This document shows, piece after piece, positions 8,149 to 64,000 of a stretch of DNA of 64,000 bases. Position 1 is the stretch's first letter. The number at the start of each line of letters is the position of its first letter. The position numbers and the translations under genes were made by a program. The stretch covers positions 5,075 through 69,074 of the forward strand of contig DATHOG010000219.1 of NCBI GenBank assembly GCA_035485115.1, given 5' to 3'. This stretch comes from Candidatus Sulfotelmatobacter sp. GTDB lineage: Bacteria; Verrucomicrobiota; Verrucomicrobiia; Limisphaerales; UBA11358. Under the pieces are notes generated by a model, which saw nothing but the letters and a program-made list of their open reading frames with translations, was not told where the DNA came from and searched no databases.

Positions 8149-8475
8149 TCAGAGGAGCCGGACGCAATTGCGCGCAAAGACATGCGCCGACTGCGCGGTC
8201 AGAAAAATTGAAGAAGCGGGAGCAATCGAGGAAGTCCCGGCGACGGACCAAACCCAAACCACCGTCACCGGGACCGGGGACAAAATCTGTTGTGACGCGG
8301 CGGAGACCGTGGCATCGAACGGGGCACGCTCCGGCGCGGGAGCGGCCTTGCAGCACGGCATCGGACAATTAGCCATGGGGCAGCAGGCGGTTTTGCCCTG
8401 CGCCGGGATTTGCGCGGACACGGCCTGTGCCCAGATGAGCAACAGGCTGCAAACGATGGTCAACGCAATCTTCAT
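8149..8475 (-). CDS. Exported Cys/Met-motif protein (hypothetical, likely metal-related)
   Basis: Signal peptide MKIALTIVCSLLLIWAQAVSA; motif CCPMANCPMPCC; high third-position GC; first gene of the metal operon. Confidence 0.5.
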   Translation of the reverse strand: MKIALTIVCSLLLIWAQAVSAQIPAQGKTACCPMANCPMPCCKAAPAPERAPFDATVSAASQQILSPVPVTVVWVWSVAGTSSIAPASSIFLTAQSAHVFARNCVRLL

Positions 8476-9773: not shown

Positions 9774-9809
9774 TCTCCCTCACCCCTGCCCTCTCCCGCT
9801 GGGAGAGGA
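9774..9809 (-). repeat. REP-like element copy 1 (CTCTCCCAGCGGGAGAGGG..AGGGGTGAGGGAGA family)
   Basis: Reverse complement matches copies at 52819-52868 and 62608-62657; contains hairpin CTCTCCC-NNN-GGGAGAG. Confidence 0.85.
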
Positions 9810-9817
9810 AGAAACGC

Positions 9818-10020
9818 TGAATCTACGCGCGCGATTTCAGAAGGCAAGAATTAAGCGGAAACAGGCGGAATGATGCGGTAAATCAAGGACTTACGAAGGT
9901 TATGGATGCGAAGGGGTGGTTTCACAAGGTCAGTGGCCTAAACAGGCTGGATTGAAATGGTTTATACCCATTTAGAAGAGGCTTGGCTGCACGTTTAAAG
10001 GTGCCTTTAAGGCAGCTTTT
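9818..10020 (+). repeat. Prophage left end with putative transposase-binding sites
   Basis: TGAATCTACGCGCGCGATTTCAGAAGG (9818-9844), GGTTTCACAAGGTC (9919-9932), ATTGAAATGGTTT (9951-9963), TTTAAAGGTGCCTTTAAGGCAGC (9994-10016); all recur inverted at the right end. Confidence 0.75.
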
Positions 10021-14044: not shown

Positions 14045-14716
14045 TCATTTCTTCTTGGTGAAAACCTTTGCCGCCGCGACTTGGAGTTCCACGAATTGGT
14101 CGATCCACTCGACCGCTTTCTTGGCGAAGGGATTTTTTTCCGGTATGCCGCCCGGACGTATTTGGAGGAAGTAGCGTTCCGCCATGCGGCTCGCGTTCGG
14201 TTTTAAAATTCCAAGATTTTCGATCTGGCATTTGCGGCCATTGGCAATGGTGCCAACCAGGCATGCGCATTCGCCCGTATAAGTCGAACCATTGACTTTG
14301 CCATCAACCAACGCCTTGCGCAGGAACTTAACTTCATCTGGAACGGTGAGGAGAATGGACCAGAGATCGTCGCGGCATTGAATGAACCATTGTTCAGGAA
14401 TTGCCTTGAACGATTTTTCGTCGAAGCTGCTGTTGTCGAAGCTGCTGTTGTCGAAGCGGCTGTTGTAGAAGCGGCTGTTGTCGAAGCGGCTGTTGTAGAA
14501 GCTGCTGTTGTCGAAGCGGCTGTTGTCGAAGCTGCTGTTGTCGAAGCGGCTGTTTTTGCAGTTCACTTCAATGCCAGAAAAATCCTTATCAGATAGATCT
14601 GCACATTCGAATTTCTGACCAGCCTCAACTGCGGCCTTGAACGCAATTTTCCAATCTGCTCCCTCCAGCGTGAACATCACTTTTTTGGTGATCCAGTTTT
14701 TAATCTCGAATTTCAT
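14045..14716 (-). CDS. Pentapeptide-repeat protein with C-terminal globular domain
   Basis: About 10 consecutive NS[RS]F[DY] pentapeptides, encoded by nine near-identical 15-nt DNA repeats; N- and C-terminal non-repeat domains. Confidence 0.85.
   Translation of the reverse strand: MKFEIKNWITKKVMFTLEGADWKIAFKAAVEAGQKFECADLSDKDFSGIEVNCKNSRFDNSSFDNSRFDNSSFYNSRFDNSRFYNSRFDNSSFDNSSFDEKSFKAIPEQWFIQCRDDLWSILLTVPDEVKFLRKALVDGKVNGSTYTGECACLVGTIANGRKCQIENLGILKPNASRMAERYFLQIRPGGIPEKNPFAKKAVEWIDQFVELQVAAAKVFTKKK
14421..14555. repeat. Nine tandem 15-nt repeats (TCGAAGCKGCTGTTG) inside the pentapeptide gene
   Basis: Direct reading: units at 14421, 14436, 14451 ... 14541 differ at only 1-2 positions. Confidence 0.95.
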
Positions 14717-20025: not shown

Positions 20026-20705
20026 GACTGACCTCCCTTCCGTGCGGCCTTGATGCGCTTGAGAAAACCGGACAGTGTGTCGCAAGCATCGGCCAGTTTG
20101 TCCTGCACCTTTTCCGGCAACATCCCGCCGTTCTTCGCATCGGCCGCCTGATGCAGCCATTCAATGGTTTCCATCGCCGTTTCTTCCAGTTCGTTCAGCC
20201 GTTCCTGTTCGGCCTTCTCCGCCGCCTTAGCGCGCTGTTCCTTCGTAAGCCCCTTCGAGCCTTTGAGCTGGCCTTTGCCCCTCGGCTTTTCCGGGTCTTC
20301 CGGATCGGGCTGCTTGAACTCCATGAAGAGCTGCTGTTGGGTCTTGCCTTCGACGAGCTGCGCAATCTGGTCCGGCAATTTCCCCGTTTTGGCAAATGTC
20401 AGGAAATCTGATATTTGAAATTTGCCGGTTTCGCAGACGCCCGTCGCCAGGCGCATATAGGTCGCCACGGTTTCGTTGGAAATGTTCGGCAGGTTGGCCG
20501 CGAGCCACGGACGGAACTGCCCATGCGGGATGCTCTTGTCTTCCTTGCCGCGCGCTTTGATATGGTTCAGGAACATCCCCATCCAGACCGCGCGCTTCGT
20601 CGCGTCCGTGAAAAGGGAATGCACGCGCTCGAAATTTTCGAGCAGCATGTGTTTGGCCTCGTCATGCCACTTGGGCGCGACCTTTGATAATGATTTTTTG
20701 CTCAT
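20022..20705 (-). CDS. DUF3102-like phage protein
   Basis: IPHGQFRPWLAANLPNISNETVATYMRLA resembles the DUF3102 signature common in Mu-like early regions; acidic/basic coiled C-terminus. Confidence 0.65.
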   Translation of the reverse strand: MSKKSLSKVAPKWHDEAKHMLLENFERVHSLFTDATKRAVWMGMFLNHIKARGKEDKSIPHGQFRPWLAANLPNISNETVATYMRLATGVCETGKFQISDFLTFAKTGKLPDQIAQLVEGKTQQQLFMEFKQPDPEDPEKPRGKGQLKGSKGLTKEQRAKAAEKAEQERLNELEETAMETIEWLHQAADAKNGGMLPEKVQDKLADACDTLSGFLKRIKAARKGGQS

Positions 20706-23433: not shown

Positions 23434-23615
23434 GCGGCCTCCAATTCAATGGTGATGCCATGGCGCGCGAGTTTTTCCCGGATCGCGTTGCGGACGAATT
23501 TCGATTTATCCGAATCTTCGATGGCTATGCCCTGTTGTAACGGCACTTCAAACGTCTCCGGTATCCAGACCGTCAACATCGTGCTTTCGCTCTTTTTTAC
23601 CGTGCCTCGTTTCAT
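23430..23615 (-). CDS. Ribbon-helix-helix (CopG/Arc-like) regulator, first early gene (Ner/Cro analogue)
   Basis: MKRGTVKK..LTVWIPETFEVPL...KSKFVRNAIREKLARHGI; paralogous to the divergent gene at 23703. The ATG at 23615 leaves an 87-bp control region. Confidence 0.6.
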   Translation of the reverse strand: MKRGTVKKSESTMLTVWIPETFEVPLQQGIAIEDSDKSKFVRNAIREKLARHGITIELEAA

Positions 23616-23702
23616 ATGGACTGAATATAGACTGAGTCTAGACACCTTGGCAATAGTTTTTGTTTGTGCCGTTTTCATATTTGGGTGTATAGATTGGATG
23701 CG
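23616..23702. promoter_or_regulatory. Divergent control region (putative operators/promoters of the lysis-lysogeny switch)
   Basis: Between divergent RHH genes; overlapping palindromes TAGACTGAGTCTA (23628-23640) and GTCTAGAC (23636-23643); TATAGAYTG repeated at 23626 and 23688. Confidence 0.55.
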
Positions 23703-24047
23703 ATGCCGAACCAAAGAGCCGTCGGTCAAAAGCTACTCACCGTCCCTTGCGATGAAAAATTCATCGCGATGATCGATGATAATCTTGGGGTTTGTCGTTA
23801 TTCAAATCGTTCGCAGTTTGTACGGGATGCCATTAAGGAAAAATTGGAGGGCTATGGCATCACGGTTCCGGCGGAGTTGACCTTGTCGCCGGACCGGAAG
23901 GGCAAGGGTGGTCCCACCAAATATCCTGAACATCGGCCTTCATATTTTGTCATGAATGAAAAACCTAGTTCCGGTAAAACCGGGGCCACTGCGCAGAGTC
24001 TTCGCCGAAAGCAGAATGCGGCAAAGACTCATCATAGTAAGTCTTGA
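23703..24047 (+). CDS. Ribbon-helix-helix regulator, putative prophage repressor
   Basis: ATG at 23703 (MPNQRAVGQKLLTVPCDEKF..RSQFVRDAIKEKLEGYGITVP); divergent from the early operon; low-complexity C-terminal tail. Confidence 0.6.
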   Translation: MPNQRAVGQKLLTVPCDEKFIAMIDDNLGVCRYSNRSQFVRDAIKEKLEGYGITVPAELTLSPDRKGKGGPTKYPEHRPSYFVMNEKPSSGKTGATAQSLRRKQNAAKTHHSKS

Positions 24048-24234
24048 AATCGTATTTCTCCAAATCGGCCACGTCCTTTTTCATCCGCTGGATGAAATCT
24101 CGAAGTTCATTCCGGTCCATGCCCTCGATCAGTTCCCTCAATTCGTCATCCATAACATCAGTTGGTTGTGTCAGCGTCGCAGTTGGTTTGTACGCGGCCA
24201 TCATTACAGGCACCGTTGGACATCCGCTGTCCAT
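23965..24234 (-). CDS. Hypothetical acidic protein antisense between repressor and lipoprotein genes
   Basis: 89 aa, ATG start, helical acidic sequence; overlaps the repressor 3' end by 83 nt, so uncertain. Confidence 0.35.
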   Translation of the reverse strand: MDSGCPTVPVMMAAYKPTATLTQPTDVMDDELRELIEGMDRNELRDFIQRMKKDVADLEKYDFKTYYDESLPHSAFGEDSAQWPRFYRN

Positions 24235-24257: not shown

Positions 24258-24794
24258 ATGAAGACCATCTTCGTCATTTGCGTGGCCGCGTTGCTGGCCG
24301 GCTGCTCGCAGAAACCTGATCCTCGCATGGCGGAGATCCAAACGCAGCTCGGGCTGCTGCAAGGCAGCATTGACGAAATGAAAACCCACCTGAACAGCCA
24401 GAGCAATTACATGAAGGGAATTTATGCCATCCAGACGAACATGTGCAATGTCATATCCAGCTATTCCAATCTCGATGCGGTTGGCCAATACGCCAGTGCT
24501 TTGGGCACCAACAATTTTAACGATTTACGGATGGATGTGGCAGAGGTTCGTTTGACGCTCCTCGAAAACCAGTTCTCCAACCTGTGTCTCACGATCAACG
24601 GCAAGGTTGCCGCTCATGCCATTCCCGTTTCATATTCCGGCCCGATGTCCGCTTACAGAAACGGAATCCCGGTTGATGTTTATCAACAGATCGTGGCCGA
24701 TGCCCAGCAAAGGCATCCCGGAGATTATCAGACCCAACAGTACGTCATCGAGGAACAGGTAACGTCTTATAAGTCTCTTCACAGTTTGCAATGA
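24258..24794 (+). CDS. Prophage lipoprotein
   Basis: MKTIFVICVAALLAGC lipobox; 178 aa; on the repressor-side transcript. Confidence 0.7.
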   Translation: MKTIFVICVAALLAGCSQKPDPRMAEIQTQLGLLQGSIDEMKTHLNSQSNYMKGIYAIQTNMCNVISSYSNLDAVGQYASALGTNNFNDLRMDVAEVRLTLLENQFSNLCLTINGKVAAHAIPVSYSGPMSAYRNGIPVDVYQQIVADAQQRHPGDYQTQQYVIEEQVTSYKSLHSLQ

Positions 24795-24880
24795 ACCCCG
24801 AAAAATTCACCTTCGTGGAATGGCTGCTCATCATCGAATGCATCTTCTTCATCGCCTGGGGCGGAATGCATCTGCATTGA
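24791..24880 (+). CDS. 29-aa hydrophobic micro-ORF (not in ORF track)
   Basis: ATGA overlap with the lipoprotein stop; MNPEKFTFVEWLLIIECIFFIAWGGMHLH; ends exactly where the palindrome array starts. Confidence 0.35.
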   Translation: MNPEKFTFVEWLLIIECIFFIAWGGMHLH

Positions 24881-25123
24881 GTGGCGAGCCGCCACGGGCA
24901 AAAGTCGGAGATTCCGACATTTCAAAAATCCGAAATTCGGAAATTTCAAATTGTGGGAAAACCACATTTTCAAAATACGGAAAATCCGAATTTTGAAATC
25001 CGCCATAATGGCGCTTTTGTTCCCACGCATGCGTGGGAAACTCAAAACGGCCAAATTGGCCGTTTTGAAATCGCCCGTGGCGGCTCGCCACATTTCAAAA
25101 ATATCTTGCCCGGCATCATGCCG
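24881..25123 (+). repeat. Array of ~10 different mini-palindromes separated by TTTCAAAA/TTTTGAAAT linkers
   Basis: Hairpins at 24881, 24904, 24929, 24953, 24978, 25001, 25021, 25048, 25077 and 25111 (stems 4-8 bp, loops 3-5 nt). The first (with 4 flanking nt, 24881-24899) and the ninth (25073-25091) are reverse complements. Confidence 0.9.
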
Positions 25124-25146
25124 CTGTGATTAAGTAGCGCGGCCAG

Positions 25147-25190
25147 CGGAGGTTGGTCCCGCCTGCGGGACCGAACCTCCGTTTTTGTTT
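25147..25190 (+). terminator. Rho-independent terminator of the repressor-side transcript
   Basis: CGGAGGTTGGTCCCG-CCTG-CGGGACCGAACCTCCG (about 15 bp stem, one bulge) followed by TTTTTGTTT. Confidence 0.8.
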
Positions 25191-25397
25191 CGGCACCTTC
25201 GCCGGGACAATTCTTTCCCTCCGCCATCCGTTAATTTCCCTAAAAGGTAGCCGCTCCGTTTTATTAATTCCGCACCCGTGTAGAGTGCGGGCGTATGAAG
25301 AACACCTAGGCGAAACCGAGCGGCGGCGGGTCCAACCTCCTTCCCGCCGTCGCTCTCCGCCTGGGCGTTCAAATCAACCAAACAAAATAATACGCCT

Positions 25398-26066
25398 ATG
25401 AAATTCAATAAATGGACTCTCGGCCTCGCCGCTGTCGCGGTGATGGCTTATACAACTGCCGCCAGGGCGCAAACCGGCATCGTAACCACGACCAACGCCA
25501 ACGGCGTTCCGGTCACGGTGACTTTGTCGCCGGCACAGATCGAAGCGGCTCTCGGTGTCCCCTCCGCAGCAACGGCATCGATGCCAGCCTTCAACACCAA
25601 CGGCCTCGACTTCACGAATGTGAATTACAAGGTCGGCACCGGCATGGAATATCTGCCGAGCGGCGGCGTATCGTCCTATATCGAGGGCGATGCGGATCTG
25701 TGGCACACGAAAATTGTGGATGTTGGCGTGGCGGGGAATGCCGCGCTGGCGAGTTCCAGTTCCGGCTTTCAGAGCGCGGCCATTGATCTGGAGCTGCTCA
25801 AAAACTTTTCCAACTTCCAGATCGCCGGGCAGGCCGGTGTGGGCGGCCGGTTTGAAGGCACCAGCGGGATCTACGGCGAGGAAAGCGCGGAGCTGAATTA
25901 CAACCTGGCCAAGGGCACCGGCTTTTCCTTCCTCGGCGCGCAAAGCTCCAGCGTGTTCACCTACGTTTTTGCCAAGGTCAGTTTGCAGGAAAGCGAAGGC
26001 ACCACCGCCGGCAAGAAAATCGAACTCGATAAATGTTTCTACGTCGGTGCCGGCCTCGCTTTCTAA
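25398..26066 (+). CDS. Prophage-encoded outer-membrane beta-barrel protein (moron)
   Basis: Signal peptide MKFNKWTLGLAAVAVMAYTTAARA; alternating strand pattern; C-terminal YVGAGLAF. Confidence 0.65.
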   Translation: MKFNKWTLGLAAVAVMAYTTAARAQTGIVTTTNANGVPVTVTLSPAQIEAALGVPSAATASMPAFNTNGLDFTNVNYKVGTGMEYLPSGGVSSYIEGDADLWHTKIVDVGVAGNAALASSSSGFQSAAIDLELLKNFSNFQIAGQAGVGGRFEGTSGIYGEESAELNYNLAKGTGFSFLGAQSSSVFTYVFAKVSLQESEGTTAGKKIELDKCFYVGAGLAF

Positions 26067-30223: not shown

Positions 30224-30371
30224 GGTCAAACCATTTCAATTTTGCCCCTTCCGCCCCGATGTGTCGTCCCCCGGGGCAAAGGCGGCTGGAACTGGCCTTA
30301 AACGCCTTAAACGAGGCATATGGCTCTTTGGTCTGGAAGTGCCAAACTCAAATTTTGAGCGAGGTCAGACT

Positions 30372-36660: not shown

Positions 36661-36729
36661 GCCGGCGCCGGTCCGCAAGGACCGGCGCCGGTCCCTAAAT
36701 CGTAAATCTAAAATCGTAAATCATAAATC
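36661..36729 (+). repeat. 13-bp-stem hairpin followed by five NTAAATC heptamer repeats
   Basis: CCGGCGCCGGTCC-GCAA-GGACCGGCGCCGG (36662-36691), then CTAAATC GTAAATC TAAAATC GTAAATC ATAAATC (36695-36729). Confidence 0.85.
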
Positions 36730-38575: not shown

Positions 38576-38588
38576 AAAATAATTGCCC

Positions 38589-39357: not shown

Positions 39358-39645
39358 ATGCATATTATGGTATCCATCGAAAAATTTACGCCTGTGATGA
39401 TTCAGCTTCCGGCAATAGATCTCCCGATTGTTGGCCTTGAGCCAGGCATGAAGCTCGTAGGTCACAACCTTCCGACCAATCACATGACATTGCCTGTTTG
39501 TCTCATCGAATTTAACGGCTATGTGCGCGAACACGTTTTGTTTCGCGTAAGCCAAGGCTACGAGCCCTCCATAATTCCAGAACGCATCGCTTGCCTTACC
39601 AAGTTGGAAAAATTCGATCCCGAAACCGCCCTTAACCAATCCTAA
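39358..39645 (+). CDS. Low-GC orphan ORF (moron) in the tail module
   Basis: 95 aa, ATG 5 nt after the upstream stop; visibly lower GC than its neighbours. The competing minus-strand ORF needs a TTG start. Confidence 0.5.
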   Translation: MHIMVSIEKFTPVMIQLPAIDLPIVGLEPGMKLVGHNLPTNHMTLPVCLIEFNGYVREHVLFRVSQGYEPSIIPERIACLTKLEKFDPETALNQS

Positions 39646-39658
39646 ATCCTAAATACCT

Positions 39659-40657
39659 ATGAGCGCCCAAACAGTTTACAGCGGCCCCGGCAAGGTCCGG
39701 TCCACCATCGCCACCAATCCCTACAACTTCCACGCCGAAGGCGAGAACGGCAAAGTGGATCTGAAGATCCTGGAGAAGCGCGACCAGCGCAGCACCGGCA
39801 CATTCGGCTACATCCGCAGCACGCTCGCCGACCAGATGGCCGAGCTGACGCTGACGCCATTCGATTCCTGGGCGCTGTTGCCGGCCTTGTTTCCCACCTA
39901 TCTCGGCGTCACCACCGGCAGCAACACCGGCGCCCTCGTCATCGGCACCCGCCCGCACGATTACGCCGCCGGCTCCGTCAGCGGCAAGGCCGTCACCACC
40001 GTCTGGACGCCGGACGGACGGCTCTACACGCTGGCGCGGTCTGCCATCGTCCAGCATCCCGGCATGAAGCTTGGCGTCGGCCAGCCGCTCTTTGATGCCA
40101 TGAAGATCGCCGGGCTCTGGGACGCCGCCGATGCGCCTGGCGGCACTGCCGCCAATTTCCTGACCAATACTGAAAGCGGTTCCTCCGATCCGGATACCGT
40201 TGGCTTCACGCCCGATTTCGTCAACGGCCATTGGACCGGGGCCTGGGCCGCGCTCACCGGCTTCACCGCCATGGAAGTGGAGGACTTCTGGCAGCTCCAG
40301 GTGCAGGCCAAGTATTCCACCCTCACCATCCAGAAACTCTCGCGCCACCTGAAGCTGGATTCCGTCGAGTTCATGATCAAGGGCCGGCTCGCCGGACCCA
40401 CGCACACGCAGATCCTCGCCAAGATCCTCGCGCACACCCTCGGCGGCGCGTTGGGCGAAGGCACCGCGGCGGATCTCATCCTCACCGGGCCCGGCAGCAA
40501 GACCGTCACCCTGAAGGATTGCGAAATCTTCCTGGACAACAGCGGTTTTGAATTCGGCGGAACAAAATTGGGCACCGGCGAAGTCGCCTTCGTCAGCCGC
40601 ATCGATTTCAGCGGCTCACCGGATGCCCCGCAACCCGCGCTGATTTTCTCTGCTTAA
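39659..40657 (+). CDS. Putative major tail tube protein
   Basis: 332 aa, position after neck genes and before chaperone-sized ORFs; no sheath-sized gene present. Confidence 0.5.
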   Translation: MSAQTVYSGPGKVRSTIATNPYNFHAEGENGKVDLKILEKRDQRSTGTFGYIRSTLADQMAELTLTPFDSWALLPALFPTYLGVTTGSNTGALVIGTRPHDYAAGSVSGKAVTTVWTPDGRLYTLARSAIVQHPGMKLGVGQPLFDAMKIAGLWDAADAPGGTAANFLTNTESGSSDPDTVGFTPDFVNGHWTGAWAALTGFTAMEVEDFWQLQVQAKYSTLTIQKLSRHLKLDSVEFMIKGRLAGPTHTQILAKILAHTLGGALGEGTAADLILTGPGSKTVTLKDCEIFLDNSGFEFGGTKLGTGEVAFVSRIDFSGSPDAPQPALIFSA

Positions 40658-41699: not shown

Positions 41700-42566
41700 A
41701 TGAAAACCGCCTCTGCGATCCTCTGCGTTCTCTGCATCTCTGCGTTTAATTCCGCCTTCGGGATCACTCCATTCGTGGGCCAGTTTAAAAATGCCGACGG
41801 CTCGGCCATGACCAACCCGTTCACCATGCAGGCCTGGCCGCAGACCTTCACCTGGACCGTCAACGGCACCAACATCATCTACGGCGGCATCCTCATCACC
41901 AACGTGCCAAACAGCAGCGGCTTTTTCACAAATTCATTTTACGCCAACGGCTTCCGCCTCTTCGTCCCCGCGTACAACTCCTATCTGTTCGGCTATCTGC
42001 CGGACACCACGCAAGTCGTCAACCTCGCGCTGTGCTTGAGCAATGCCCCCGCCACCGCGCAGGGTCTCTCGCAATACGGCCTCATCACCAACTGGCTCGG
42101 CTATGCGCCGGTGCCGCCCACGTGGGCCGGCGTCACCAACGCCCTCGGCTACGCCCCGCCCACCAATACCTACGCCAATTTTACAAACATCCTCGGCTGG
42201 ACCCCGACCTACGCCGGCATCACGAACCTGATCGGCATCCCCGCCACCAATGGGGGACCGCTCGCCTATTCGCAACTGCCGTTCACGCCGCCCTCGAACA
42301 ACTATGTCGGCATTTCCAATGCCGTCGGTTTCGTGTTCGCCACCAACGGCGGTCCGCTCGCCTACTCGCAATTGCCGTACATCCCGCCGACGAACACCTA
42401 CGCCGGCATCAGCAACGTCCTCGGTTTCAACCTGGCCACGAACAATCCGCAGACGCTCATCTTTACCAACTTCACCATCTTGACCTTCACCACCAACAGC
42501 AGCGGCGGCGTGACCAATTTCACCTTCACCAACCTGATCGATACGCTCATTTATACGCATCCATGA
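41700..42566 (+). CDS. Tail-fibre-repeat protein
   Basis: Six ~14-30 aa repeats with core [AV]xx[AIV]LG[YWF]xP (ALGYAP, ILGWTP, LIGIPA, AVGFVFA, VLGFNLA). The N-terminal 'signal peptide' is encoded by a CTCTGCG-type DNA repeat, so the true start may be downstream. Confidence 0.55.
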   Translation: MKTASAILCVLCISAFNSAFGITPFVGQFKNADGSAMTNPFTMQAWPQTFTWTVNGTNIIYGGILITNVPNSSGFFTNSFYANGFRLFVPAYNSYLFGYLPDTTQVVNLALCLSNAPATAQGLSQYGLITNWLGYAPVPPTWAGVTNALGYAPPTNTYANFTNILGWTPTYAGITNLIGIPATNGGPLAYSQLPFTPPSNNYVGISNAVGFVFATNGGPLAYSQLPYIPPTNTYAGISNVLGFNLATNNPQTLIFTNFTILTFTTNSSGGVTNFTFTNLIDTLIYTHP

Positions 42567-52622: not shown

Positions 52623-52744
52623 GCTTTAAAGACGCCTTTACGGCACCTTTTAAGACTGCTAAAACGGGGGTGGCCACGGCCGATTTTTACCAGCGACCTT
52701 GTGAAACCATTTCAATTCCTTCTGAAACCAGCCGCGCTTTTACA
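52623..52744 (-). repeat. Prophage right end with putative transposase-binding sites
   Basis: Reverse complement reads TGTAAAAGCGCGGCTGGTTTCAGAAGGAATTGAAATGGTTTCACAAGGTC ... AAAAGGTGCCGTAAAGGCG; TGAAACCA occurs twice (52702, 52723). Confidence 0.75.
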
Positions 52745-52818: not shown

Positions 52819-52868
52819 GCTGTTCCCTCTCCCAGCGGGAGAGGGTTAGGGTGAGGGAGAGAGTGCGG
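52819..52868 (+). repeat. REP-like element copy 2
   Basis: GCTGTTCCCTCTCCCAGCGGGAGAGGGTTAGGGTGAGGGAGAGAGTGCGG; one mismatch (T/C) over 50 nt versus copy 3. Confidence 0.9.
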
Positions 52869-54809: not shown

Positions 54810-54920
54810 CCTGTACCCAAAATAAGAAACCGCCCCATGGAAACCAAAGGCAAAATTGTGACATTTTGCGGCCCTCAATTTTTGCCAAAATTTGACCACC
54901 CGTCACATTTTTTGGTCGAA

Positions 54921-54960
54921 CTATTTCGAACTTATTCGAATTTATTCGAATTTATTTCAA
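54921..54960 (+). repeat. Four tandem decamers (YTATTYSAAN)
   Basis: CTATTTCGAA CTTATTCGAA TTTATTCGAA TTTATTTCAA. Confidence 0.85.
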
Positions 54961-55076
54961 TTCGGCAAAAGTCGTCAAACCCGGTAAAGCCTCTTTCTTG
55001 AAACCGCCCACTGCCCCGGGCCTCATGCCCCTATCAACAATCGCCCATCAACTCGTTTCCGGTTTGAGTTACCCTG

Positions 55077-55110
55077 ATTCACTCGGATTCACTCGGATTC
55101 ACTCGGATTC
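55077..55110 (+). repeat. Three and a half tandem decamers GATTCACTCG
   Basis: GATTCACTCG x3, then GATTCGG. Confidence 0.9.
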
Positions 55111-55690
55111 GGACCCCGTCAGATAGGCTGCCACCCTGTGGATTGGGTTCGTTTTTCTCAAAAACCCAATGTTTACGCGGAATAATTGGGTTCGTTTCGT
55201 AAAATACATGTTCGACCCACCGCCTCGCGCTGTCTCCATCAACTATCCCCCATCAACTCATTTCCGACTTAGCCGGTGGCCCCTCCAGAAGGAGCGTCCG
55301 GCAAGAACCTTGACGTCTTGATGGTTAAAAATTTTCCCGTTAAGCGCAAATAGCCGCCCATACGCGCAATTATCCGCAAATAGCCGCATATTTCGAAATC
55401 CGGGATGCGAAATTCAGCTGCCCCGCACCAGGTTGGTGCGGCTCGGACCGGGGCGAAATAGCTCGATTCGAGCCATCCCGCCCCAGCCCTTGCCGCGCCG
55501 TAGTTTTAACGAAGGCGGGTCGCGCCTTTCGGCGTTATGTCAAAGAACCACAACTCAAAGCTCCGCTATGCGGCTTTATGTTCACCACAGCGATAAACCA
55601 TAAGCTAACAAGGTGTACAATGTCAAGATGTATTGTAAACATTTTTGCGCGGATAAATCACCGCCTCTCGCCTTGGTATTTGAACTTTTC

Positions 55691-55725
55691 CTAAATCGCA
55701 AATCGTATATCGCAAATCTAATTTC
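55691..55725 (+). repeat. Five NNAAATC-type heptamer repeats upstream of the 55799 gene
   Basis: CTAAATC GCAAATC GTATATC GCAAATC TAATTTC; same family as 36695-36729 and 39636-39656. Confidence 0.8.
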
Positions 55726-61157: not shown

Positions 61158-62165
61158 GTGCGCGCGGCGCGTTCGCGGCAGGACATCTGGTTCAGCCCCG
61201 AGGAACCGATGGATAAAAACGACCCGTTGCGCGCGGTGATGCCGGTGGGCAACGGCGTCTGCCACGCGTTTTTTGTCGCGGACCAATTGGTCGGCACGGC
61301 GACGCTCGGGCGGCGGGCGGCGAACAAGCCGTTCACCGCCGCGCAGGTGAACCTGTTGCACACCTTCGTGGATTTTCTGGCGATCCAGCTCGTGAACGCC
61401 CGGTTGCTCGACGAGCGCACGATGTTGCGCGTGACGCGGCGCGAACTGGAGATCGCGGCGGACATCCAGCGTTCGCTGCTGCCGGCCACGCTGCCGGTTT
61501 GTAAACCGTTCGAGATTTCGGCGGGCTGCCAGAGCGCCTTGCAGGTCGGCGGTGACTTTTATGACGTGATCCCGGCGGGCGACGGCGCGGCGCTGGTCGT
61601 CATCGCGGACGTGATGGGCAAGGGCGTGCCGGCCGCGCTCTTCGCGGCGGTATTGCGCAGCACGCTGCGCTCGATGCCGCAGTTGTTTTCGCTGCCGGGT
61701 GAACTGCTCGCGGCGGCGAACCGGATCCTGCACGATGACTTGTCACGCGTGAACATGTTCATCACGGCGAAAGTGATCTTTTTGAACGCGCGCTGGGGAC
61801 GGATCATTGCGGCGAGCGCGGGGCATTGTCCGCTGCTGATTTCCGGCGCGCCCGAGAAGGACGGCCCGCGCAATTCCGGCCTGCCGCTCGGCATCGAGCC
61901 CAAGGTTTTTTATCCGCAAACCGTGCACACGCTCGCGCCCGGCACCGCCGCCATGCTGTTCACCGACGGCCTGAGCGAGACGCGCAACCCGGCGGGCGAA
62001 CAGCTTGGCGAGAAACGCTTGCAGCAGTTCCTGTCCGGGGCCGCGGACAAGGCGCAAAACGCGAATGAGGTGAAAGATTTTGTCCTGGAGCGCCTCGTGG
62101 AATTCCGCGGCGCCGCCGCGCTCACGGATGACCAGACTTTTGTGATAATCAGAAATCAGAAATGA
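61158..62165 (+). CDS. PP2C/SpoIIE-family phosphatase (with C-terminal half of the GAF-like domain)
   Basis: GGDFYDVIP, VVIADVMGKGVPAALFAAVLRS, FTDGLSE, TDDQTFVII; the ORF opens immediately after the TAG at 61155-61157. Confidence 0.8.
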   Translation: MRAARSRQDIWFSPEEPMDKNDPLRAVMPVGNGVCHAFFVADQLVGTATLGRRAANKPFTAAQVNLLHTFVDFLAIQLVNARLLDERTMLRVTRRELEIAADIQRSLLPATLPVCKPFEISAGCQSALQVGGDFYDVIPAGDGAALVVIADVMGKGVPAALFAAVLRSTLRSMPQLFSLPGELLAAANRILHDDLSRVNMFITAKVIFLNARWGRIIAASAGHCPLLISGAPEKDGPRNSGLPLGIEPKVFYPQTVHTLAPGTAAMLFTDGLSETRNPAGEQLGEKRLQQFLSGAADKAQNANEVKDFVLERLVEFRGAAALTDDQTFVIIRNQK

Positions 62166-62677: not shown

Positions 62678-64000
62678 CTAAATAATTTTCGCCACAATTT
62701 CCCGCGCCTGCCGGATCAGATTCAAATCTTCCGCCAGGTTCCCGAAGCGCAATTTCATCGCTCCGCTTTGCTGCTGGCCGAGCAATTCTCCTGGTCCGCG
62801 CAATTTCAAATCCGCCTCGGAAATTTTGAAACCGTCGTTCGACTCCTCCAAAATTTTCAGGCGCGCCTGCGCCTCCCGGTCCTGCGCGTCGGAGATCAAG
62901 ATGCAAAAACTCTCATGCGCGCCGCGCCCGATGCGTCCGCGCAACTGGTGCAATTGTGCCAGCCCGAAATGCTCGGCGTTCTCGATGAGCATCACGGTGG
63001 CGTTCGGCACATCCACGCCGACCTCGATGAGCGAGGTGGCGACCAGCGCCTGGATCTTGTTCGCGCGGAAATCCGCCATCGTCTTTTCCTTGTCGATGGC
63101 CTTGATCCTTCCGTGCAGCAGCCCGGCTTGAAATCCATCCAGTGCGCGCCGCACATTTTCAAATTCCTTCGTCACGGCCTTGATGTCCTTGTCCGTGTCC
63201 GCAACCTCGACGCGCGGATAAACGATGTAGGCCTGTCGCCCGGCGGAAAGTTTTTCGCGGATAAACTCAAAGACCTTCGGCAGCTTTTCCGTGGTGCGGA
63301 CAAAGGTTTTTAATATCCCGCGGCCGGCCGGCATCTCATCGATCGTCGAGACATCCAGATCGCCGTAAAGCGTCAGGCCCAGCGTGCGCGGGATCGGCGT
63401 TGCCGTCATCACCAGCAGATGCGGATAATCTCCCTTCCGTACGAGCGTCTCGCGCTGGGTCACGCCAAACTTGTGCTGCTCGTCTATGATGACGAGGCCG
63501 AGCTTGGGCAGATCGAAGCCGCCCGTGAGCAATGCGTGCGTGCCAATGAATAATATTGGCGATTGGCGATTGGCGATTGGCGATTTTTCCAAAGTTTTTC
63601 GACTGGCGGTCTGCATTTCAACTTGAATCCCCAGCGGCTCGAACCATTTTGAAAAATTCCGGAAATGTTGTTCGGCCAGGATTTCGGTTGGCGCCATCAA
63701 TGCAACGTTGAAACCGCTTTCCAGGGCCATCAAGGCCGCGCAGGCCGCGACGGCGGTTTTTCCTGAGCCGACATCGCCCTGCAAAAGCCGTCGCATCGGA
63801 TGTTTGCCGCCCAGGTCCGCCCGGATTTCGCGGAGCACCGTCGTTTGGGCCTCCGTCAATTTGAAACCAAGTCCGGCGAGAAAGGGTTTCATCAAACGAT
63901 TGTCGCCGCCGCAGGGCAGCGCCTTCGCGGTCGCCTCGAATTTTTTCCGGCGCGACTGGATTTGGGTTTGCAGCTCCACGAATTCATCCAGCGCCAGCCG
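62678..64000 (-). CDS. recG: ATP-dependent DNA helicase RecG (3' part; runs off the window)
   Basis: LTEAQ...LLQGDVGSGKTAVA (motif I), DEQHKFG, MTATPIPRTL, QLRGRIGRG; reading frame open to position 64000. Confidence 0.9.
   Translation of the reverse strand, partial: RLALDEFVELQTQIQSRRKKFEATAKALPCGGDNRLMKPFLAGLGFKLTEAQTTVLREIRADLGGKHPMRRLLQGDVGSGKTAVAACAALMALESGFNVALMAPTEILAEQHFRNFSKWFEPLGIQVEMQTASRKTLEKSPIANRQSPILFIGTHALLTGGFDLPKLGLVIIDEQHKFGVTQRETLVRKGDYPHLLVMTATPIPRTLGLTLYGDLDVSTIDEMPAGRGILKTFVRTTEKLPKVFEFIREKLSAGRQAYIVYPRVEVADTDKDIKAVTKEFENVRRALDGFQAGLLHGRIKAIDKEKTMADFRANKIQALVATSLIEVGVDVPNATVMLIENAEHFGLAQLHQLRGRIGRGAHESFCILISDAQDREAQARLKILEESNDGFKISEADLKLRGPGELLGQQQSGAMKLRFGNLAEDLNLIRQAREIVAKII
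63555..63582. repeat. Four tandem heptamers (ATTGGCG) inside recG coding sequence
   Basis: ATTGGCG x4 on the plus strand, translated as SPIANRQSPI just before the conserved GTHAL motif. Confidence 0.9.

Follow-up and report, generated by a model that had tools for sequence, protein, structure and literature searches.

The classical superfamilies of repetitive extragenic palindromic (REP) sequences are defined by a GTAG or a CGTC tag at one end and go with a RAYT transposase in the genome, and REP dimers and tandem clusters have been described (PMC3733652). Here we describe an array of ten small palindromes, which occupies positions 24881-25123 of a 64-kb stretch of DNA from contig DATHOG010000219.1 (the window), within a prophage of ~43 kb carried by a verrucomicrobial host. 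The array is real, striking and so far unique. Our tentative reading, to which we assign a probability of roughly 0.45, is that it represents a lineage-specific cluster of extragenic palindromes, similar either to the enterobacterial REP clusters (bacterial interspersed mosaic elements, BIMEs) or to terminators, which would have grown by tandem duplication and would act, if at all, as a barrier at the 3′-end of a transcript and as an insulator.

Two other kinds of phage element invite comparison. Phage Mu has an internal activation sequence (IAS, the enhancer) and a strong gyrase site. The sib retroregulator of phage lambda is characterized by an RNase III site, which lies in the 3′ region of int.

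Anatomy of the array

All ten hairpins of the original prediction, an earlier annotation of this DNA, were found by inspection, each as a perfect palindrome: H1 (24881-24895), H2 (24904-24918), H3 (24929-24941), H4 (24953-24965), H5 (24978-24988), H6 (25001-25013), H7 (25021-25038), H8 (25044-25066), H9 (25077-25091) and H10 (25111-25123; CGGCA-TCA-TGCCG, -6 kcal/mol, no strand assigned). Their spacing had been given as 22-29 nt. The array itself stood, and its regularity had been underrated: the periodic core with hairpins H2-H8 (24896-25087, also without strand) keeps an exact 24-nt register across eight units, the centres of six hairpins are exactly 24 nt apart, and Tandem Repeats Finder (TRF) reported a period of 24 with 69% match between copies.

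There is also an 8-nt sub-period, each 24-nt unit consisting of three 8-mers (3 x 8). One 8-mer is an A/T-rich linker, the other two form a GC-rich hairpin (a 16-nt palindrome). The linker variants (TTTCAAAA, TTTCAAAT, TTTGAAAT and similar) are each palindromic about a central C or G, and their consensus can be written ATTTSAAAW (also TTTSAAAW). With at most one mismatch, the linker ATTTCAAAA/TTTTGAAAT occurs six times within 24919-25100. The inner stems H2-H8 are all different. The GC content of the array is 47%, compared with 58% genome-wide.

The core is bracketed by two 19-mers, which are exact reverse complements of each other, as had been claimed. The left copy, GTGGCGAGCCGCCACGGGC, contains H1 (24881-24899, plus strand), the right one contains H9 (25073-25091, minus strand). 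A further linker copy, ATTTCAAAA, lies outside this inverted repeat (25092-25100, plus strand), which argues against simple insertion of an element bounded by terminal inverted repeats (TIRs). A miniature inverted-repeat transposable element (MITE) was rejected: a 19-bp TIR is present, but there is no direct duplication at 24880/25092, one linker copy lies outside the TIR, and there is no second copy in the window. In a check for MITE copies, the protein collection contained no counterpart of the translated array on any other contig.

Hairpin density, folding and strand symmetry

The array is statistically exceptional, far beyond chance. It contains 12 distinct perfect hairpins with a stem of at least 5 bp, compared with 2.75 ± 1.44 (maximum 8) in 2000 dinucleotide shuffles, and shuffling of the 16-nt variable parts unit by unit gave a combined probability of ~1e-15. 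No other part of the 64 kb is as dense in hairpins (14 per 250 nt vs ~2), and no regular chain of hairpins in the 2.05 Mb of DNA that was fetched is longer. When the units were aligned in register, 88.9% of the cells were paired, a value reached by none of 500 shuffles. Between units, five of the six stem pairs differ on both sides and none on one side only; changes to G-U do not occur.

Folding of the transcript, which the original prediction had recommended, yielded z-scores of -12.15 for the plus strand and -12.05 for the minus strand. In the minimum free energy (MFE) fold of either strand the two 19-mers pair with each other, and the resulting helix of 19+4 bp closes a multiloop that carries seven hairpins; the 4-bp extension takes in the stop codon of the preceding open reading frame (ORF). 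The hairpin energies range from -3 to -17.5 kcal/mol and each hairpin is equal on both strands. Only two of the ~90 predicted base pairs are G-U. The scarcity of G-U pairs and the equal energies of the two strands indicate that the complementarity belongs to duplex DNA, not to one RNA strand.

These folds bear on the possibility that the array encodes a regulatory RNA, either a sib-like retroregulator, in which the 19-23-bp closing helix would be the RNase III site, or the target or source of an antisense RNA for the adjacent 29-amino acid peptide, as in type I toxin-antitoxin systems. The long-range perfect 19-bp helix (with its 4 bp including the stop codon) closing the multiloop, the hydrophobic nature of the peptide and the equal folding of both strands are features that such an RNA would have. 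The near-lack of G-U pairs argues against selection at the RNA level, no promoter-like antisense site was found, the micro-ORF is coupled to the gene of a lipoprotein, in which it departs from the type I toxins that are known, and there are no relatives with the array in which covariation could be followed. No Rfam family matched the window at gathering thresholds, and permissive thresholds returned only sub-threshold noise for the segment 24700-25450. We regard a regulatory RNA as quite unlikely.

Position in the operon

The array begins directly after a micro-ORF stop codon (24880) and ends before a terminator (from 25145), in agreement with the earlier description. The operon runs on the plus strand. 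Its first gene encodes a ribbon-helix-helix (RHH) type regulator (23700-24047), which shares 51% identity over 65 amino acids (E 6e-18) with the RHH gene at the same position of the related locus L007. Public annotation missed this gene and called instead an overlapping 89-amino acid minus-strand ORF (23965-24234). The next gene (24258-24794, plus strand) encodes, according to its translation, a lipoprotein of 178 amino acids with a signal peptide and an LAGC lipobox. It is an orphan moron gene: no homologue but itself was found among 5.8 billion protein clusters, and there was no Pfam or PHROG match. The last gene is the micro-ORF for a hydrophobic peptide of 29 amino acids, MNPEKFTFVEWLLIIECIFFIAWGGMHLH (24791-24880, plus strand; read from the sequence, with a gene call in two assemblies). 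Its start overlaps the lipoprotein stop (ATGA), so that the two are translationally coupled, and its TGA abuts the array.

The strong intrinsic terminator of the operon (25145-25186, plus strand) lies 20 nt from the array end and has a 17-bp GC-rich stem followed by T5 (-30.5 kcal/mol); on the minus strand no T-tract follows the stem. Since the array lies directly 3′ of the RHH, lipoprotein and peptide genes and before this terminator, it is the predicted 3′ untranslated tail of the operon. The gene order thus bears out the suggestion that the array belongs to the untranslated 3′ part of the lysogenic transcript, which is that of the RHH operon.

The terminator is followed by the leader or promoter region of the late operon (25187-25397, plus strand, ~210 nt). 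In an alignment with the array-less relatives L007, L094 and L097 this region shares the conserved blocks GCACCTTCGC, CCCTAAAA and ACGAAAAATTCCGGC. The first late gene (25398-26066, plus strand) encodes a secreted protein of 222 amino acids with homologues at the same position in L007 (49%) and L097 (38%) and without a family match in Pfam or PHROGs; it is followed by small proteins, terminase and portal. The early genes run leftward from a divergent control region (~23600-23700) containing 11-nt ATATRGACTGA repeats, which are likely operators. The gene content of the prophage includes a Mu-type portal (Pfam, E 1.5e-39), a large terminase, a DnaB helicase and a transposase-like protein of 766 amino acids, the last with a weak match (PHROG 310, E 1.4e-9). 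The assignment of the host follows from PilT neighbours named Verrucomicrobiae; the name under which NCBI lists the assembly, Candidatus Sulfotelmatobacter, seems unreliable.

The array could in principle encode protein. An ORF of 82 codons with an 8-residue repeat (24881-25129) lies in frame with the micro-ORF behind its TGA; it was called as a gene by JGI, and the period of the array is a multiple of three. Since the unit contains no stop codons, however, the array can be read through in four of its six frames. The translation had no Pfam match, and in a word-indexed search of the 5.8 billion clusters its only match was a 58-amino acid NCBI call from the same contig. Moreover, one would not expect a coding sequence to contain perfect DNA palindromes, and the GC content departs from that of the genome. 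We consider a coding function extremely unlikely.

Outer arms and inner hairpins

Exact copies of the 19-mer GTGGCGAGCCGCCACGGGC were found on more than 119 reference-genome stretches. Followed by an A, GTGGCGAGCCGCCACGGGC(A), it is present on dozens of stretches in each of two Kiritimatiellia metagenome-assembled genomes (MAGs; JBJEVW01 and JAEDLN01), often in tandem with 20-56-nt spacing. Other copies are found in Verrucomicrobiia MAGs and in some Clostridia and Alphaproteobacteria MAGs. The loci of the family are L128-L246 (e.g. L184 1579-1765, L221 2165-2245 and L139 4115-4163). Some copies directly abut stop codons. However, only 11 of 140 copies lie within 15 nt after an ORF of at least 80 codons, and stop-codon adjacency is therefore not a general property of the family. 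In the window the 19-mer is represented by the two array copies and one variant with two mismatches at 38585. Neither GTAG nor CGTC is present at the ends of the 19-mer. The outer arms of the array are REP-like, and the 19-mer, which behaves as a REP-like repeat in the Planctomycetes-Verrucomicrobia-Chlamydiae (PVC) group, appears to be an undescribed REP-like family lacking the classical tags.

The inner hairpins resemble terminators. Every unit consists of an A-run, a GC stem-loop and a T-run, and a terminator scan flagged two units. A GC-rich stem-loop with a T-run after it and an A-run before it is, as far as can be told from sequence, the layout of an intrinsic bidirectional terminator. 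Three unrelated phage groups also have H8, together with its A4/T4 flanks, as a solitary terminator-like hairpin, and two have H7. The statement that the locus is not an ordinary terminator cluster, and the dismissal of REP sequences that went with it, were premature in view of the A-tract/hairpin/T-tract modules, the recurrence of H8 and the REP-like 19-mer.

Distribution among related elements

Because the lipoprotein is an orphan, relatives of the prophage were sought via the large terminase (TerL). Seven IMG/VR and 34 JGI metagenome loci with 49-86% TerL identity were collected, and up to 10 kb of upstream DNA was fetched. None of these loci contained a linker cluster or a comparable hairpin density, and none had significant blastn similarity to the array. 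L007 is syntenic for the 222-, 82- and 185-amino acid proteins, and L094 shares 83% with the terminase and 63% with an early protein. Both keep the layout of RHH gene, moron, terminator and late leader, with other small genes followed directly by the terminator and no array. In the four assemblies that carry this phage the region is identical or has the same gene spacing, and no length polymorphism of the array was seen among them. A DNA search of cultured phages with the segment 24200-26100 found no similarity. The absence from ~40 TerL relatives shows that the array is lineage-specific and dispensable for the phage group, which argues against a core role in transposition, packaging or late-gene control.

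A covariance model (R1) was built from six units of the window, in line with the proposal of the original prediction to search for similar arrays. Outside the array, the model picked up only the units of L076 and a coding lookalike. The lookalike lies within the gene for an early protein of 227 amino acids (g227; …GKFQISDFLTFAK…, window 20390-20421) and scored 27.7 bits; its homologue in L094 (2030-2061) scored as well. This resemblance is probably a coincidence of KFQI/ATTTGAAAT words.

L076 (IMG/VR contig 3300001336_000114; L087 is a second copy) is a 13-kb element with 52% GC and a P4-type integrase, which has no proteins in common with the prophage and no relatives in IMG/VR. At 9839-9960 it contains four different palindromes parted by ATTTGAAAA at 24-25-nt spacing, beginning on the stop codon of the portal gene. 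The R1 model, based on window units only, scored these units at 21-27 bits. L076 was found by scanning IMG/VR for three linkers at 24-nt spacing, so that its linker and period follow from the way it was sought; its variable palindromes and its anchoring on a stop codon, by contrast, were no part of the pattern. The scan returned mostly A/T-rich or perfect tandem repeats; only L076/L087 had variable palindromic spacers in a GC-rich contig. A two-linker pattern gave no further array among the matches listed. In contrast to the window array, that of L076 is located within a late operon; it lacks a bracketing inverted repeat, and no strong terminator comes after it.

The two arrays might together form an undescribed class of periodic, stop-codon-anchored hairpin arrays in temperate mobile elements. 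In such a class the linker ATTTSAAAA and the 24-nt phase would be selected and the GC stems free, and the array could serve as a platform for a widespread host factor that sets the fate of the upstream message or insulates operons. On the transcript this might be, for example, an RNA binder of the RNase E or the Hfq/ProQ type, on DNA a nucleoid protein. We hold this to be unlikely. If stop-codon-anchored arrays with conserved linkers and variable stems do form a class, the weight of the finding would grow.

L076 has two further repeat features, which between them cover 8170-8270 and 2130-2290: a second array of five different ACGT/GACGTC-centred palindromes right after the terminase gene, and ~20 copies of the 8-nt repeat AAACTGCM 5′ of a small gene. 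Dispersed 24-nt tandem repeats, TTTGAAAGGGCAGCGCCCTTTGGG, were seen in contigs of the giant-virus MAG GVMAG-M-3300027759-32 (L010 5137-5280, L011 8205, L025 244, L033 2371-3173, L073 8442 and L022 6741); their stems vary by compensatory changes (GGGC/GCCC vs GGGT/ACCC).

Prophage ends and the transposition link

The end-site consensus CCTTSTGAAAYCR has four perfect copies in the window. They are found at the prophage ends only, as inverted pairs: two at the left end (9832-9844 and 9917-9929, minus strand) and two at the right end (52697-52709 and 52718-52730, plus strand). These copies mark the prophage ends and are likely transposase-binding sites. Inverted copies of a host REP-like hairpin (CCCTCTCCC-GCT-GGGAGAGGG, with CTCCCTCACCC flank) lie just beyond both ends (9778-9812 and 52820-52865), so that a palindromic repeat of the host flanks the prophage on either side. 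The sequence CAAACCATTTCAAT, which matches the end motif almost perfectly, was noticed at 30227-30240, where a short gap separates the terminase gene from the portal gene.

The original prediction had connected the array with these ends on the strength of a linker that matched an end site at 11 of 13 positions. The match exists (25061-25073), but matches of this quality occur at chance frequency: CCTTSTGAAAYCR had 14 matches in the window vs 10.2 expected, four perfect and ten with two mismatches, of which one falls in the array. The common core TGAAATCGC occurs 33 times vs 31.6 expected, i.e. at chance frequency. The likeness of another array segment to the longer end motif GAAACCATTTCAAT, also claimed, did not hold up, since no match with three or fewer mismatches was found in the array.

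The proposal that the array serves a Mu-like prophage as an internal enhancer of transposition, as a cluster of pseudo-ends or as a decoy for the transposase is therefore not supported, with end-site likeness at chance level and the array missing from all relatives examined. The 11/13 match and the presence of the transposase-like protein and the Mu-type portal are the points in its favour. Significant binding-site matches and conservation with the transposition module, by which a Mu-type enhancer or pseudo-end would be recognized, are both lacking. The array lies ~1.2 kb from the early control region, 35% along the prophage length, a position that also rules out a central gyrase site. Judged by these sequence comparisons, the array is not part of the transposition machinery, and we give a role in transposition very little credence. 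The tempting link to Mu-type transposition control is thereby removed, and the four perfect CCTTSTGAAAYCR copies define the real end sites of the prophage.

Short repeats in the window and in related genomes

The short-repeat vocabulary of the array (xxGAAAT, AAATCCG) is common in these genomes, often in heptamer repeats just 5′ of start codons. Tandem heptamers (TAAATCG, AATCCTA, AAATCGC, AATCAGA, AATCGCC and AATCCGC) stand directly 5′ of start codons in the prophage, the host flank and related phages (window 36696-36729, 39638-39659, 55693-55718, 62147-62163 and 63555-63585; L007 378-420; L008 800-860). These heptamers may represent a feature of leaders or of translation initiation throughout the clade, or else arrays that bind a regulator.

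Longer tandem repeats were also noticed. A 15-nt repeat is present in nine copies (GTCGAAGCGGCTGTT) within an early minus-strand ORF (14420-14554), and a 96-nt repeat in 1.9 copies within a 1012-amino acid ORF of the tail region (42242-42428). The host flank contains a long non-coding stretch (54900-55720) dense in short tandem repeats (TCGAAYTTAT x4, GATTCACTCG x3.5 and CGCAAATAGC-like x4).

Origin and possible function

The 24-nt and 8-nt periodicity, together with the related short A/T-rich repeats common in the same genomes, leads us to infer an origin by duplication. Most likely, a short A/T-rich repeat (8-nt words, 24-nt unit) of the kind common in the phage group and the host was tandemly duplicated in place. 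The arms of the units would have been kept or made complementary at the DNA level, e.g. by intrastrand template switching, and the duplicated core would have been set between two inverted REP-like 19-mers. The array would be transcribed as the 3′ tail of the RHH-lipoprotein-peptide operon, and any effect would be exerted in cis on that transcript. Each A-tract/GC hairpin/T-tract module could pause or weakly terminate RNA polymerase arriving from either side. The stacked hairpins, or alternatively the 19-bp closing helix, could block 3′-to-5′ exonucleases and thereby stabilize the message, and the array together with the terminator at 25145-25186 could insulate the lysogen-expressed operon from the late operon.

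Several observations weigh against a cluster of palindromes that merely terminates or stabilizes. A plain terminator or stabilizer has no need of a strict 24-nt register and conserved linkers, and the strong downstream terminator should suffice, as it does in the relatives. Perfect two-strand symmetry is unexpected from selection on one RNA strand, and two-way termination has no obvious use between co-directional neighbours. A similar array with the same linker, ATTTGAAAA, again spaced at 24 nt, is present in the unrelated L076, a hint that the two may share a function of a more specific kind. The inner hairpins H2-H8 are not repeated in any fetched locus, and 21 kb of host flank contain no copy of the 19-mer, so that the REP membership of the outer arms is known only from other genomes. 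Strict phase, conserved linkers and two-strand symmetry are not explained by a barrier function alone, and this keeps two other explanations alive.

The first is that the array is a non-functional by-product, either a young microsatellite-like expansion with 'correction' of the palindromes or a selfish sequence of REP type, which the phage would tolerate without effect in a 3′ untranslated region that it can do without. It would account for the restriction of the array to this phage, for the lack of differences between the four carrying assemblies and for palindromes that are all perfect, undecayed and symmetric on both strands; the short-repeat vocabulary shared with other parts of these genomes and the REP-like outer arms fit it as well. 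Ten different perfect stems in exact register with preserved linkers are, however, hard to obtain without constraint (the combined chance being ~1e-15), and the same design is found in an unrelated element, L076. On balance this explanation seems to us rather doubtful.

According to the second, the array acts at the level of DNA. A dimeric protein of the phage or the host would bind the palindromic linker AWTTTSAAAWT, present in 7-8 copies at 24-bp phase, and form a nucleoprotein filament 5′ of the late promoter, serving as silencer, insulator or decoy. The linkers are indeed the conserved, dyad-symmetric and exactly phased part of the array while the spacers vary, the conserved late leader follows 100-350 bp downstream, strand symmetry suits duplex DNA, and L076 has the same linker. 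Such binding would leave the palindromic spacers unexplained. No promoter or operator of the prophage shows an enrichment of the linker, the RHH control region has a different repeat (ATATRGACTGA), relatives with the same late leader lack an array of this kind, and a 24-bp phase does not correspond to an integral number of helical turns. We think a DNA-binding platform improbable, and continue to prefer the duplicated palindrome cluster with a possible barrier and insulator function. If the array merely adds hairpins before a terminator, it is a local curiosity, which would show how elaborate structures can arise in the moron regions of prophages from short A/T-rich repeats and palindromes of REP type.

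Comparison with known systems

No known family accommodates the array: its variable stems set it apart from REP/BIME, and CRISPR arrays, integron attC sites, toxI, retrons and MITEs each fail on a defining feature. The exclusion of CRISPR and attC arrays in the original prediction was correct. The conserved part of the array is only 8-9 nt long, as opposed to CRISPR repeats of 24-48 nt, and the spacers are palindromic; the best score of the Rfam CRISPR-DR models was 16.8 bits vs a threshold of 48. Integron attC arrays have units of 57-141 nt with R″/L″-L′/R′ boxes and cassette ORFs, whereas the units here are 24 nt with no ORFs between them. Neither cas nor integrase families were matched among the 20 ORFs scanned against Pfam and PHROGs.

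Type III toxin-antitoxin RNAs (toxI-like) consist of near-identical repeats with an endoribonuclease gene after the terminator; here the units match at 69%, and the downstream 222-amino acid secreted protein has no family match. A retron msr-msd was rejected as well: the bracketing inverted repeat is present, but the 10 flanking ORFs contained no reverse-transcriptase match (Pfam, PHROGs). A CsrA sponge was rejected on a hand count of GGA (~5 per strand in 243 nt vs ~4 expected), and no integration host factor (IHF) site, WATCAANNNNTTR, was seen by eye in the array sequence. A replication origin is unlikely, as the array lies in a moron region 11.5 kb from the DnaB gene and is absent in relatives.

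Among phage elements, lambda sib is similar in that it, too, is untranslated, lies 3′ of a gene and has a long perfect helix on which the fate of the message upstream could depend. The array has no sequence relation to sib and no helix whose completion depends on read-through, and any cleavage by RNase III is putative. The IAS and the gyrase site of Mu are likewise internal, non-coding and located in a prophage of transposable type; they differ from the array, which has no significant end-site similarity, lies away from the early operators, is not central and is not conserved in relatives.

The likeness to bidirectional or tandem terminators is closer, consisting in units of A-run, GC-rich stem-loop and T-run at the end of an operon and in the stand-alone occurrence of H8 elsewhere. 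Unlike in these, the stems are mostly 4-6 bp long (-3 to -8 kcal/mol), weaker than usual, and stand in exact register, the neighbouring operons are co-directional, and a strong conventional terminator follows anyway.

With BIMEs the array shares the extragenic position (between the stop at 24880 and the terminator at 25145) near a stop codon, the GC-rich palindromes in a row, the short conserved linkers and the location in 3′ untranslated or intercistronic DNA; moreover, its outer arms are copies of a palindromic repeat that is present in high copy number in related genomes. BIME palindromes are conserved, 20-40 bp long and repeated many times within one genome, built from shared REP units of the Y and Z types and, in the classical superfamilies, tagged. 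In the array the seven inner stems differ and what is kept are the 8-9-nt linkers and the 24-nt phase. This design of conserved linkers, free stems and exact phase is the opposite of REP, CRISPR or iteron arrays. If it is indeed selected, the array would matter more, and would point to a factor that reads the shape of a hairpin together with a short single-stranded or A/T-rich motif.

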